From the NCBI GenBank assembly GCA_963845565.1, contig CAWJSJ010000002.1, forward strand, positions 1,440,001 through 1,504,000: DNA of 64,000 bases, in the 5' to 3' direction. Positions 20,401 to 23,400 of this stretch are shown piece by piece. Made by a program: the position numbers. This DNA comes from an uncultured Methylomirabilota bacterium. Lineage in GTDB: Bacteria > Methylomirabilota > Methylomirabilia > Methylomirabilales > 2-02-FULL-66-22. Each line of letters opens with the position of its first letter. The first letter of the stretch is position 1.

Positions 20401-23400
20401 AGCTACCAGCAGCGGGAGCGGCGGTTCGGCTTCTGACGGGCTGCTGAAAAAGGCCCATCTGCGGCGTTGGCCCGCCTCGGCACTCGCTGCGACGTACCTC
20501 CAGTACGCCTCGCTCGGCCCTCCGGCGTGCCGCCTTGCATCTGGGCCTTTTTGAGCAGCCTGGGCGAAGACGGGTTCTTCGCTTCCTGCCGAAGCGGGCC
20601 GGCAACCAACCGAATCGTGTCTTCCCTGTCAGGCGGCCTCGTTGAACCAGCGCTGGAGGATCACCTTGATGGTGGCTTCGGGCGCTGCGGCGGCGTACAC
20701 GCCGTCCGTCATCCCCTCCAGCCCGCGGACTTGATACAGGGTGACGTTCCGGCGCTCCCCCTCGCCGAGGAATCGGGGAAACCAGGCCAGGTCGCAGAAC
20801 CGATAGAGCGGGGCGGCGGGCAGGATTCCCGTTCCGACCGCCACCTCCCGGTGCCGGGCTGTAAGCCTGGCCTGCGGGCTCCGGCCCCTGGCAGCCTCGA
20901 ATTCGGTTGACGACTCAACCTCCCAGACGTTGACCGCCCCCATGAGGATCCTCCTCGAGGAAGACTGCGGTGGTCGCGGGGCAGGCCCCGAAGCCGTGGC
21001 GCCGCCGTGCCGGTGCGCGCCGCCGCGGTTCGGGTCGCCGTTAAGAGTCCAGCAGGAACGCCAAGACCGCCCGAGGCGGTCTTGGCGAACAGAATCACGA
21101 TGGCGTGCCCGAGGCGATTTGAACGCCTGATCTTCGGCTCCGCAGGCCGACGCTCTATCCAGGCTGAGCTACGGGCACATGAGTCAAGAGCGAACTCTGG
21201 AAGGGAAAACCAAGGGGCATCTTAGCATTCGGACGCGGCGCCCGTCCAGTAAAAGCTGACGCCCCGATCATGGCTTGCTCAGGGCCAGGGCGGCCTCGAT
21301 CGTGCGCAGAACGGCGCTCGTCTCCACCGTCTTCTGGAGCGCCAGAACGGCGCCGGCCTCGAAGGCCCGCGCGCTCAGCTTCGAATCGTTCATGGCCGTG
21401 AGGATCACGACCGGAATGGTCCGCAGCGTCGGATCCGTCTTGAGCAAGCGGCAGACGTCGAAGCCGTCGATACCGGGCATCATGACGTCGAGGAGGATGA
21501 GGTCCGGGCGCTCGCGCAACGCCGCATCCAGGCCGGCTTCCCCGTCCGGAGCGGTCACGACGACGTAACCGTGAAACCGCAAGATATCGCCCAACATCTG
21601 GAGAATCAGCGGATCGTCATCCACGCACAGGATCTTGATCTCGCGGGCACTGGACGAGTCCGTTCCCAAAGCGGACTCCAGGCTGAGTCCCGTCTCCACC
21701 GGAAAACCGCATGCCTGGCAGCGCCGCAGCGGAACGCCGGCGCCGACGAACTGAAAAGTGGGCTGAGCGACTTGGCAGCGCGGGCAGAATGCAGTCGCCG
21801 GGTCTTGCTCCATGCGGTCTCCAGAACGGTGCGCCACGGGCGTCGGGGGTGAGAACGAACGCGCGAACCTCGGGCCTCAATGGTCCGAGAACCTATCAAA
21901 GCCGCGGAGGGTTGTCCAGCGCCAACGGCAGCCACCCAGATGCTGGTTTGCCGAGTCCCCAAATCGCCCGGATGCCTGCCCGCCACATTACCCGATTGCC
22001 ACGGTGCCGCCCTCAGGATGCGGCCGGATCCTTAGAACGTGGGCGGGAAACACTTCACCACCTGAAGCGCCGAGCCTGTCGCGGCCTCGTAGGCCGCGTG
22101 TTCCGAGGCAGCGGGAACGAAGAAGGTGGCTCCCGTCTGCAGCGGGAGGTCGCAACCGGGGCCGGTCAGCCGCCCCGCGCCGTCGACCACGATTCCCACG
22201 TAGCAGCGGCCGCGATCCCGATCCGGGATCCGCTTTCGGGCGACGAGACGGGCCATACCAAAACAGGGGGTGTGCTCGGGACCGATCAACAACTCCTCCC
22301 GACCGGCCTCATCTTCCTGAAGCAGTCGCGGAGAAAGCGAATGTCGGGCGACGTACCCCATCCCAGTCCCCTGGTAGTTGAAGCAGCGCATCGCCAGGTC
22401 GAACCCCAGCCCCATGAAGCACTGGGCCTCGGTACGTTGCATCCCGCAGAACTCGTACTCGGTGTTGACGACCAGGTCGGTCGGCTCCTGGATCTCGATC
22501 ATGAAGACACCCGGTCCGAGGGCGTGGGGGGTGCCGGCGCTGACCAGGTACACGTCGCCCGGCTTGACCTCAACTCTGTTGAGCGCGGCGATCTGAGCCG
22601 GGATATCCTGAGACCGCACGATGCGCCGGAACTCCTCCTCGGTGACGCCGTCGCGGAACCCGAAGAGGGCGTACGGGGCGACCCCGTCGATGGCCCGTGT
22701 GGCAAGGACCAGCGACGCCTCGGTCTTCCCGAAGTTGGATCCGAGATGCTTCCTGGCAAACGCCGCGTCCGGATGGCATTGGACCGGCAGGCGCATGGCC
22801 GAGTCCAGGAGCTTACAGAGGACACCCAGTTCCGACCCCAGGTTCGCGACATGCCTTGCCCCCAACATGGCCTCCGGGAGCGCTTGGATCAACTCCTTGA
22901 GGACGATGGTAGAACCGTCGGAAAGGCGGACACGGCTCAAGCCTTCGTCCGGCGGCCGCCCGGGAAGGCGGGAAACCGTGGTGGAGCCCACCCACTCTTC
23001 CGGGACGTTCCGGTCCGCCGGGTCCAGCTGTCCCTGAAAACGATCCAGAAGCGCCCCGCCGCGCCACAGGCGGTACACACGATTTCGGAGGAGCGAAAGC
23101 GGTCGCCTGGTGACGGGCGCCAGGTCGGCGAGGTGTGGGGCAGCCATGAGACCCTCCTGCGAGTCAGGGGTGAGAAGGATCGCTTTTGCACAACCGGGCG
23201 CTGGGCCTTGAAACAGGGCGCACGGCGAGGCAGCGCGAGTATCCCCCACCGGCCTGGCAGTGTCAACCGCGCGGGCTGCCGCCACGGGCACGCGGGCACC
23301 GCGCCGGTGGAGTGCTACGACGCCTCCCGGCGCGTGCCGGACGTTGTCGCGCCGCCCAATTCGGTTGACATGGCAGGACTCCTTGGATAGCCTGAACCAG

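Follow-up and report, generated by a model that had tools for sequence, protein, structure and literature searches.

In the uncultured Methylomirabilota bacterium analysed here (GCA_963845565.1, denoted G000; 6 contigs, 5.36 Mb, 66% GC), the arginine codons CGU and CGC are very probably read by a genuine G34 tRNA, tRNA-Arg(GCG), as their sole decoder, in an inosine-free form of CGN decoding that accompanies the loss of tRNA-Arg(ACG) and of TadA. In most bacteria, this anticodon position is occupied by A34, which is edited to inosine. The state is found in four families of the order, and their relatives conserve tRNA-Arg(ACG) and tadA within a common locus, which has been emptied in G000. Families are labelled f1 (the genus of G000) and f2 to f10 (the other families compared).

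The tRNA-Arg(GCG) gene and its surroundings

The gene is the only tRNA called by ARAGORN in the window, the whole stretch of 64,000 nt that was analysed. The features concerned are collected in Table 1.

Table 1. Positions of the tRNA-Arg(GCG) gene, its neighbours in the window and the CGN-box tRNAs of the genome
Feature	Positions	Strand	Evidence and remarks
tRNA-Arg(GCG) gene	21101..21178 (window)	-	ARAGORN, RF00005; length 78 nt, CCA end encoded
Anticodon GCG (nt 36-38 of the tRNA gene)	21141..21143 (window)	-	Sequence of the anticodon loop
Response-regulator receiver domain ORF	21271..21876 (window)	-	Pfam PF00072, 92.5 bits; context only
Undecaprenyl-diphosphate synthase gene (uppS-like)	19492..20433 (window)	+	Pfam PF01255, 262.5 bits; context only
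tRNA-Arg(GCG)	1461101-1461178 (contig C2)		ARAGORN
tRNA-Arg(UCG)	2424208-2424284 (contig C2)		ARAGORN
tRNA-Arg(CCG)	2423880-2423957 (contig C2)		ARAGORN

The general tRNA model (Rfam RF00005) matches the gene with 65 bits (gathering score 29) over positions 1-71 of 71, as a complete cloverleaf with the acceptor strands GUGCCCG/CGGGCAC, the anticodon loop CU-GCG-GA, a discriminator G and the CCA end. Arginine identity in tRNAs depends on an NCG anticodon, with C35 and G36, and on A20 in the D-loop. Both anticodon bases are present, and the D-loop, AGCCUGGAUA, contains an A aligned with the A20 of other arginine tRNAs. Genes 92-96% identical to this one are carried by 12 other genomes of the genus.

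Some 90 nt separate the tRNA from the receiver-domain ORF, which lies upstream in the same orientation, and the uppS-like gene converges on the tRNA; these surroundings are common to G009, of the same genus, and not to f7. No promoter or terminator consensus was found around the gene in a scan of window positions 20400-22000. Short contigs from four metatranscriptome runs, compared with positions 19000-24000, overlap 21132-21176, the 5' half of the tRNA, and are one base short in the D-loop, at 21162; because of this difference they are not assignable to the gene, and they may originate in other tRNAs or other organisms.

Arginine tRNAs and deaminase-fold genes in G000

ARAGORN called 49 tRNAs in the whole genome, with the arginine anticodons cct, gcg, ccg, tcg and tct, and Infernal (RF00005) called 45, every one at an ARAGORN site. 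A34 is present in none of either set, and tRNA-Arg(GCG) is the only CGU/CGC decoder found, next to a U34 tRNA-Arg for CGA and tRNA-Arg(CCG). The survey's finding, which had reported 49 tRNAs, none with A34, and GCG beside UCG and CCG, is thus reproduced, and the codon counts given there (CGT 8,530; CGC 42,393) are of the same order as those of a crude set of 3,734 ORFs (8,236 and 38,741). It has to be noted that tRNA-Glu(UUC) was found by neither program despite about 17,000 GAA codons in use; since the assembly is incomplete for tRNAs, the absence of a tRNA gene from G000 alone is weak evidence. In G009 (f1) and G035 (f7), each a complete genome in one contig, the arginine anticodons found were gcg, ccg, tcg and tct only.

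Judging by the anticodons, tRNA-Arg(GCG) would read CGC by G:C Watson-Crick pairing and CGU by G:U wobble, tRNA-Arg(UCG) would read CGA and perhaps CGG, and tRNA-Arg(CCG) would read CGG. Taking into account that tRNA-Arg(UCG) already existed, the decoding of CGA would be independent of inosine, and a G34 tRNA could therefore replace tRNA-Arg(ACG). Once the CGN box was decoded without inosine, TadA would have no substrate, which would explain its disappearance.

TadA was searched for with the NCBIfam model NF008113 (cut-off 150 bits), a strict threshold that 6 of 12 control genomes pass and above which the TadA of relatives scores 160-202 bits. As the survey had stated, no gene of G000 reaches it, the best matches being 53.6 and 29.9 bits. 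Three genes with the cytidine-deaminase fold are present, namely RibD, a dCMP-deaminase-like gene and an NE0047-type guanine-deaminase homologue. The 53.6-bit match was rejected as TadA, being RibD by TIGR00326 (362 bits), and so was the 29.9-bit match, the NE0047-like protein of 192 aa, which scores 172 bits with PDB 2G84 versus at most 27.7 bits with any TadA chain (26.6 bits with E. coli TadA, 1Z3A; the TadA of G015, from a sister family, gives 154.5 bits with 1Z3A as a control). When the G015 TadA was used as the query of a tblastn search of G000, the same two genes alone were recovered, with 47 and 43 bits; for the latter, identity to the query amounts to 29%, the very value previously given for a GuaD-like gene.

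Distribution in the order and the phylum

The order-level sample comprised 44 genomes and the phylum-level sample 135, each of the latter at least 90% complete. Within the order, TadA exceeds the cut-off in 12/12 genomes of f2, 0/15 of f1 and 0/11 of f7, making 0/26 for f1 and f7 together, while tRNA-Arg(GCG) is found in 13/15 and 9/11 genomes of these two families, respectively. The gene was not found in G006 and G010 (f1) or in G041 and G042 (f7), genomes that are 87-92% complete; a loose anticodon-arm pattern applied to the incomplete genomes G006, G010, G027, G028 and G030 gave no more matches than its reversed control. Across the phylum, TadA passes in 92/135 genomes (f2 10/10, f8 2/2, f9 and f10 79/97) and in 0/24 of f1, f7, f5 and f6. 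A tRNA-Arg(ACG) sequence pattern occurs in 54/135 genomes, again with 0/24 in those four families. The corresponding GCG pattern matches 22/135, all in f1, f7 and f6, with 0/111 in f2, f4, f8, f9 and f10; it requires G at tRNA position 7, so that the f5 gene, called by ARAGORN, escapes it. The tRNA-Arg(ACG) genes of the phylum have A at this position.

Thus, inosine-free CGN decoding is present in four families (f1, f7, f5 and f6), and not in two, as had been claimed in the survey, in genomes of 1.9-7 Mb (about 66% GC in G000). The claims that sister families keep ACG plus TadA and that the replacement is shared by the genus of G000 hold in these samples. Its attribution to one clade fares less well, since an AU test of a single clade {f1, f3, f5, f6, f7}, a group chosen after the tree was seen, gave p 0.025 against it. 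The underlying family tree was built from five linked markers (the C-terminal part of gyrA, serS, dnaX, ybaB and recR) in 16 genomes, several with missing genes; its backbone supports are 36-44, and support is confined to f2+f4 (100/99) and to the individual families. As the backbone is weak and the tested clade was named post hoc, TadA may have been lost in one event or in several.

The ancestral tRNA-Arg(ACG)-tadA locus

In relatives, tRNA-Arg(ACG) and tadA lie inside a conserved gyrA-serS-tRNA-Ser-...-SRP RNA-dnaX-ybaB-recR locus, and in 30/54 phylum genomes the two genes share a strand, with tRNA-Arg(ACG) at most 700 bp upstream of tadA. The order in f8 is serS-Ser-Ser-Ser-Arg(acg)-tadA-Ser-SRP-dnaX, and that in f2 is the same except that three further genes separate Arg(acg) from tadA. 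In f5 (G031), Arg(gcg) occupies exactly the ACG slot, flanked by tRNA-Ser(gct) and tRNA-Ser(cga), and tadA is absent; in f6 (G032), the arrangement is Arg(gcg)-SRP-dnaX, with GCG directly before the SRP RNA. In f1 (G000, G009 and G012) and f7 (G035, G033 and G041), the locus is contiguous and contains neither the arginine tRNA nor tadA; in these two families the GCG gene is located elsewhere, in G000 at 21101..21178 of the window. A search for tadA remnants at these loci returned only noise (at most 19 bits), with no relic in f1, f5, f6 or f7. Since gyrA and recR are joined in G000 by an uninterrupted stretch that contains neither gene, as is also the case in G009 and G035, each assembled as a single contig, the loss of both from G000 is real.

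From this synteny, an order of events can be proposed. The ancestor of the class would have had tRNA-Arg(ACG) immediately upstream of tadA within the gyrA-...-recR locus; a G34 arginine tRNA would have taken over from ACG, TadA would have become dispensable, and tadA would then have been deleted. On such a scheme f5 and f6 would have retained GCG in the ancestral locus, and f1 and f7 would have ended with an emptied locus and GCG elsewhere.

Alternative explanations and origin of the G34 tRNA

The assembly of G000 is not beyond reproach, as it has an estimated contamination of 6.4%, and the missing tRNA-Glu(UUC) means that at least one essential tRNA gene is absent from its 6 contigs. It could be argued that ACG and tadA lie in unassembled or mis-binned parts and that the GCG gene is supernumerary or stems from a contaminant. 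However, both the contiguous locus without the two genes in G000, G009 and G035 and the recurrence of the same state in f1, f7, f5 and f6 speak against this, and an artefact is hardly credible. Another doubt concerns inosine itself, which a divergent or non-orthologous deaminase might still make in some RNA, so that the lineage would not be editing-free. G000 keeps its NE0047-like deaminase; G009 has a 177-aa TadA-like ORF (76 bits to NF008113; best PDB match E. coli TadA, 69 bits) with intact HAE and PCxxC motifs, so that the TadA family is not wholly gone from the genus; and f3 (G027) has a TadA-like gene of 117 bits away from the ancestral locus. However, no tRNA of G000 offers an A34 substrate, its own deaminase scores far higher with 2G84 than with any TadA, and tblastn found no counterpart of the G009 ORF in G000. 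Residual inosine formation is therefore considered very unlikely, and replacement of the ACG/TadA pair by a G34 tRNA is maintained as the explanation.

With regard to the source of that tRNA, a simple A34-to-G point mutation of ACG fits poorly, because the GCG genes, when the anticodon is removed, group with CCG and not with ACG: the tree splits {GCG+CCG} from {ACG+UCG} with support 85/87. All GCG genes of the order also have in common with CCG an additional nucleotide in the D-loop, G37 and a C31-G39 pair, features not shared by ACG or UCG, and the identity of the G000 gene is 82% to the CCG of its own genome versus 79% to the ACG of f2. It is conceivable, with chances somewhat short of even, that GCG arose from the CCG isoacceptor by duplication or gene conversion followed by a C34-to-G change, and that it made ACG and TadA redundant before their deletion. 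This proposal is opposed by the f5 gene, which sits exactly in the ACG slot and whose acceptor stem and final 31 nt, at the 3' end, are those of f2 ACG, by the position of the f6 gene in the same locus, and by the arginine tRNA tree itself, which has 75 columns only and a key branch whose support is not strong. Horizontal gain, with Archaea or a different bacterial phylum devoid of TadA as the donor, could be invoked since G34 arginine tRNAs are the archaeal norm in the account of Ehrlich et al. (2021, PMC8007984), the GCG genes listed by a pattern scan belong to many phyla, and the f1 and f7 genes have unrelated neighbourhoods. It is nevertheless quite improbable, given that the genes resemble the arginine tRNAs of the lineage itself (both ends of the f5 gene equal those of f2 ACG; the f1 gene has 82% identity to its own CCG) and that two families carry GCG inside the ancestral locus. 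A broader scenario, doubtful at present, is that ACG-tadA is a conserved substrate-enzyme gene pair dismantled more than once within the order and replaced by a G34 tRNA whose central domain would derive from CCG by anticodon shift or gene conversion, instead of by a point-mutated ACG. If this were true, the order would provide a natural series of intermediates for an "essential" modification enzyme becoming dispensable.

Comparison with known systems

TadA is the parent of adenine base editors, and E. coli cannot live without it (Wolf et al. 2002, cited in PMC6063277); lineages devoid of it are for both reasons of some interest. The survey had regarded TadA loss as documented only for Mollicutes, a view contradicted by the passages of PMC8007984 and PMC6063277 on the subject and by many free-living phyla: the pattern scan detected tRNA-Arg(GCG) at no fewer than 119 loci in at least a dozen phyla, many of them free-living, and TadA was present in 0/10 carriers sampled from the matches listed. 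Inosine-free CGN decoding is thus already known (Mollicutes, Thermotogae, Spirochaetes) and common among other free-living phyla, and the general picture of bacterial decoding is unchanged. What is new is the lineage, with four families of one order, the tRNA-Arg(ACG)-tadA adjacency and the in-locus intermediates. A literature search on Methylomirabil* with TadA returned nothing on this topic by title, and phrases on TadA loss returned nothing relevant among the matches listed. Three locus states coexist in close relatives, namely the ACG-tadA pair, an in-locus GCG without tadA, and an emptied locus with GCG elsewhere; this set of genomes makes the order of events and the ACG or CCG origin testable by denser sampling. 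It is also predicted that methane-oxidising relatives growable in enrichment culture would show no TadA-type mRNA editing.

Five major losses of inosine modification were analysed among 1093 bacteria by Diwan and Agashe (2018, PMC6063277). In its passages on these losses, the five clades lack the target tRNA and have non-target tRNAs, partly without a shift in GC content; as in the present order, the loss of TadA accompanies that of tRNA-Arg(ACG). The names Methylomirabilis and NC10 are absent from its main text, and those passages contain no analysis of synteny or adjacency.

In the Mycoplasma pneumoniae group of Mollicutes, for which TadA-independent CGN decoding is described in the relevant parts of Yokobori et al. 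(2013, PMC3711424), tadA and tRNA-Arg(ACG) are likewise missing and GCG and UCG read the CGN box. The model put forward there, in which UCG is required before ACG can be replaced, fits this order. Unlike it, these Mollicutes have also dispensed with tRNA-Arg(CCG), their genomes are reduced and AT-rich, and their GCG is judged to be a simple A34-to-G derivative of ACG, whereas the GCG described here also has CCG-like features. Archaea, as treated in the pertinent passages of PMC8007984, resemble the order in reading CGU/CGC with G34 and in having neither A34 nor an A34 deaminase; the G000 tRNA is, in contrast, bacterial in sequence, as indicated by its identity to its own CCG and its full match to the general tRNA model.

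A further likeness is to the Thermotogae and Spirochaetes, all sequenced members of which have tRNA-Arg GCG instead of ACG according to the same passages of Ehrlich et al. (2021). These are also free-living or non-reduced bacteria in which G34 replaces A34 in the CGN tRNA-Arg, and TadA was not found in one Thermotogaceae and one Treponema genome. However, the state is fixed there across whole phyla. In Methylomirabilota, the switch happened inside one order, which allows a comparison with relatives that retain the ancestral state and with in-locus intermediates.

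Arginine Decoding in the Genome

The only tRNA gene of the window is a tRNA-Arg(GCG), matched over its full length by the Rfam tRNA model with 65 bits (gathering score 29). Read on its own strand, it shows an acceptor stem of 7 bp (GUGCCCG/CGGGCAC), the D-loop AGCCUGGAUA, an anticodon stem UCGGC/GCCGA with the loop CU-GCG-GA, the T-loop UUCAAAU, a discriminator G, and a CCA encoded in the gene. In the whole assembly (6 contigs, 5.36 Mb, 66% GC), ARAGORN detects 49 tRNAs, none with A34, the arginine anticodons being cct, gcg, ccg, tcg and tct; Infernal with RF00005 detects 45, every one at a place called by ARAGORN, with no extra gene. 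Thus, the survey's finding of a GCG arginine tRNA in a genome lacking A34 tRNAs has been borne out. Its codon counts (CGT 8,530; CGC 42,393) are close to those obtained here from a crude set of 3,734 high-GC3 ORFs, equivalent to 74% of the genome: CGT 8,236, CGC 38,741, CGA 11,741 and CGG 44,428.

According to standard wobble rules, G34 of tRNA-Arg(GCG) would read CGC and CGU, U34 of tRNA-Arg(UCG) would read CGA and perhaps CGG, and C34 of tRNA-Arg(CCG) would read CGG. With CGU and CGC (CGY) served by a G34 tRNA, TadA, the tRNA adenosine-34 deaminase, would be left without a substrate. Taking into account that tRNA-Arg(UCG) is found both in the TadA-keeping family f2 and in TadA-less families, the reading of CGA would have been independent of inosine before the switch.

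It has to be noted that Glu(ctc) is the only glutamate tRNA of the genome. A tRNA-Glu(UUC) was found by neither ARAGORN nor Infernal, although the crude ORF set contains about 17,000 GAA codons; either an assembly gap hides its gene or GAA is decoded in another way.

The window also contains a hairpin repeat of approximately 130-140 nt (predicted fold of -71.9 kcal/mol), with 218 BLAST matches in the genome and no family match in Rfam. Four metatranscriptome runs cover its sequence deeply, with contigs that continue into unrelated sequence. These matches and contigs identify it as a multi-copy element, possibly common to several organisms.

Coordinates of the features discussed (G000, genome under study; G009 and G012, same genus; G044 and G045, family f8; C, contig; L, locus from an individual genome)
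Feature	Location	Strand	Remarks
tRNA-Arg(gcg)	window 21101-21178	-	ARAGORN
Hairpin repeat	window 20436-20575
Hairpin repeat	window 18489-18628
Hairpin repeat	window 25553-25701
tRNA-Glu(ctc)	G000:C2:2611233-2611310
DUF2155-family gene	L172:3132-3749 (G000:C2:604632-605249)		205 aa
Small SRP RNA	L172:4153-4252 (G000:C2, ~605653-605752)		RF00169, 100 nt
TadA-like ORF	L049:793-1323 (G009:C1, ~845 kb)		177 aa
Partial tRNA-Arg(GCG)	G012:C2:154265-154307 (L193)		nt 1-43, 93% identical
tRNA-Arg(ACG)-tadA adjacency	L185:5241-5815		G045
tRNA-Arg(ACG)-tadA adjacency	L186:6951-7526		G044

Absence of TadA

With the TadA model NF008113, whose cut-off is 150 bits, the genome yields only two matches, of 53.6 and 29.9 bits. 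The former is RibD (TIGR00326, 362 bits), and the latter a 192-aa protein with a general CDA domain only. Among PDB entries, this protein scores 172 bits against 2G84 and its variants, about 52 bits against guanine and guanosine deaminases of the CDA fold, and at most 27.7 bits against TadA chains; we take 2G84, whose PDB title gives the domain name only, to be the Nitrosomonas NE0047 guanine deaminase. A third gene of the CDA fold resembles dCMP deaminase/ComEB. A tblastn search with the TadA of G015, a genome of the sister family f2, retrieved RibD with 47 bits, the NE0047-like gene with 43 bits and 29% identity, and nothing else; as a control, this query matches E. coli TadA (1Z3A) with 154.5 bits.

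Weaker candidates in relatives were also discarded by motif reading: the inspected f7 matches of 73-88 bits correspond to an FCY1-type cytosine deaminase (G035) and a GuaD-like protein (G034), and one match in G009, which belongs to the own genus and is a complete genome, is another FCY1-type cytosine deaminase. G009 additionally carries an ORF of 177 aa that retains the HAE and PCxxC motifs intact, reaches 76 bits with the TadA model and has E. coli TadA as its best solved relative (69 bits). Its counterpart is absent in the genome under study, and none of the arginine tRNAs found in G009 has A34.

Distribution among Relatives

Among 44 genomes of the order with a completeness of 85% or more, TadA exceeds the cut-off in 13, namely all 12 of f2 and G029 of f4, and in none of the 15 of f1 (the own genus, G000 included) or the 11 of f7. 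Among 135 genomes of the phylum with a completeness of 90% or more, it does so in 92: none of the 24 of f1, f7, f5 and f6, 10/10 of f2, 2/2 of f8, 1/2 of f4, and 79/97 of f9 and f10. The reported lack of TadA is thereby sustained, as is its retention together with tRNA-Arg(ACG) in sister families, this tRNA being present, among the loci retrieved, in the f2 genomes G015 and G025.

BLAST with the window tRNA followed by ARAGORN located tRNA-Arg(GCG) in 13/15 f1 and 9/11 f7 genomes, and not in G006 and G010 (f1) or G041 and G042 (f7). Exact sequence patterns, which miss variants and so give lower bounds, place GCG in 22 of the 135 genomes (f1 12/13, f7 9/9, f6 1/1; none of the 111 of f2, f4, f8, f9 and f10) and ACG in 54 (none of the 24 of f1, f7, f5 and f6); no genome matches both patterns. 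The TadA, tRNA BLAST and pattern counts include the unpublished genomes G023, G030, G051, G122 and G123, and no conclusion depends on these alone.

The Ancestral Locus

Annotation with Pfam, tblastn, ARAGORN and Rfam (Ser and Arg denote tRNA genes) reveals in f8, from another order of the same class (G044, G045), the arrangement gyrA-serS-Ser(tga)-Ser(gct)-Ser(gga)-Arg(acg)-tadA-Ser(cga)-SRP RNA-dnaX-ybaB-recR. The f2 genome G015 keeps the same frame, except that Arg(acg) is separated from tadA by a desaturase gene, an ORF and a response regulator, and in other f2 genomes (G024, G025, G019) and f4 (G029) tadA immediately precedes Ser(cga)-Ser(gga). In f5 (G031), the locus reads serS-Ser(tga)-Ser(gct)-Arg(GCG)-Ser(cga)-Ser(gga)-SRP RNA-dnaX, without tadA, and in f6 (G032) Arg(GCG)-SRP RNA-dnaX-ybaB-recR, with the contig end just upstream. 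Arg and tadA are both missing in f7 (G035, G033, G041), where four serine tRNAs are consecutive, and in f1 (G000, G009, G012), where a DUF2155-family gene lies between Ser(gct) and Ser(cga). The TadA-less loci show no detectable trace of tadA (at most 19 bits), nor was an ACG remnant found in G000. Since G009 and G035 each consist of a single contig, their lack of both genes cannot be put down to an assembly gap. The loss of tRNA-Arg(ACG) and tadA is real and lineage-wide.

By our reading of the TadA and ACG-pattern positions, 30 of the 54 ACG-pattern genomes have tRNA-Arg(ACG) at most 700 bp ahead of tadA and in the same orientation, an adjacency observed directly in the annotated f8 loci. 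There, tadA stands immediately behind the gene for the enzyme's only tRNA substrate.

Regarding the slot itself, f3 (G027) has a DUF2155-family gene of the f1 type just before tRNA-Ser(cga), and other families have tRNA-Arg and tadA there, or nothing. The SRP RNA before dnaX is of the small type in G000 and of the large type (RF01854, about 266 nt) in the examined f2, f5, f6, f7 and f8 genomes.

Origin of the GCG Gene

The GCG gene of f5 occupies the ACG slot and has its first 15 and last 31 nt in common with the f2 ACG gene, which argues for descent in place from ACG and against descent from CCG. However, the GCG genes of the order all have one more D-loop base, a C31-G39 pair and G37, features that CCG has as well and that ACG and UCG lack, and an anticodon-free tree of 28 arginine tRNA genes separates GCG and CCG from ACG and UCG (support 85/87), as expected if the gene came from CCG. 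Both groups of features would be compatible with a chimera that arose through gene conversion. Taken together, we give descent from ACG, with or without gene conversion, roughly an even chance, and regard descent from CCG as a serious possibility that falls somewhat short of that.

The f1 and f7 GCG genes are located outside the ancestral locus; the f1 site is common to the genus (G009) and has no gene in common with that of f7. In a five-marker tree of 16 genomes, with linked markers and several gappy rows, the backbone lacks resolution. Constraining f1, f3, f5, f6 and f7 together costs 20.7 log-likelihood units (p-AU 0.025), a value to be read with the same linked markers and gappy rows, and with a group chosen after seeing the tree. 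The state of f3 is ambiguous: G027 (85% complete) resembles f1 in the DUF2155 gene of the locus, yet carries elsewhere a 117-bit TadA-like gene (best PDB match E. coli TadA, 108 bits), and its CGY tRNA was not found.

Two further observations concern arginine tRNA genes. In f2 and f7, tRNA-Arg(UCG) and tRNA-Arg(ACG) are 88% identical, have the same acceptor stem and group in the tree (arginine tRNA clusters L041, L043, L046, L047, L190); judged from these sequences, the UCG isoacceptor of the phylum appears to be a duplicate of the ACG gene in which the anticodon was altered. In G012, a partial second GCG copy, not called by ARAGORN, sits 15 kb upstream of the full gene and may be the scar of an inserted element.

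Relation to Known Systems

One genome per GTDB species was scanned with a D-arm plus CUGCGRA pattern, giving at least 119 loci. By record titles, the matches listed include Planctomycetota, Actinomycetota (Gaiellales, Thermoleophilia), Chloroflexota (Dehalococcoidia including Dehalococcoides mccartyi, Thermoflexus, Ktedonobacterales, SAR202), Armatimonadota, Dormiibacterota, Thermotogaceae, Treponema, Nautiliales, Bipolaricaulota, Margulisiibacteriota, Uhrbacteria and Methylomirabilota. Of the 119, 60 loci were passed to ARAGORN, which called tRNA-Arg(gcg) in all but one, a locus truncated by a contig end, and TadA exceeded the cut-off in none of 10 carriers sampled (best match 62.8 bits), which comprise three complete chromosomes and one genome of 9.4 Mb.

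No literature naming this order for GCG or TadA loss was found, and GCG goes unmentioned in excerpts of Wald and Margalit 2014 (PMC4041420). In passages of Diwan and Agashe 2018 (PMC6063277), covering 1093 bacteria and five sister-clade comparisons of inosine-modification loss, clades without the modification lack the target tRNA or have it in fewer species, and non-target tRNAs occur in more; GC or tRNA shifts leave two of the five losses unexplained. An excerpt of Ehrlich et al. 2021 (PMC8007984) describes GCG instead of ACG in all sequenced Thermotogae and Spirochaetes. Thus, the survey's finding stands as biology, the loss being real and lineage-wide, and its presentation as a rarity does not, given the many phyla with GCG, the TadA-less carriers and the published cases. 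The GCG state without TadA is of an already known kind, and the new content is modest: a series of locus states inside one order, the widespread ACG-tadA adjacency, and the CCG-like make-up of the GCG genes.

The loss of tadA with replacement of ACG by GCG is described for Mollicutes in passages of Yokobori et al. 2013 (PMC3711424), where a UCG tRNA is proposed as a precondition for the replacement; in the Methylomirabilota order, the independence of CGA from inosine would match this precondition.
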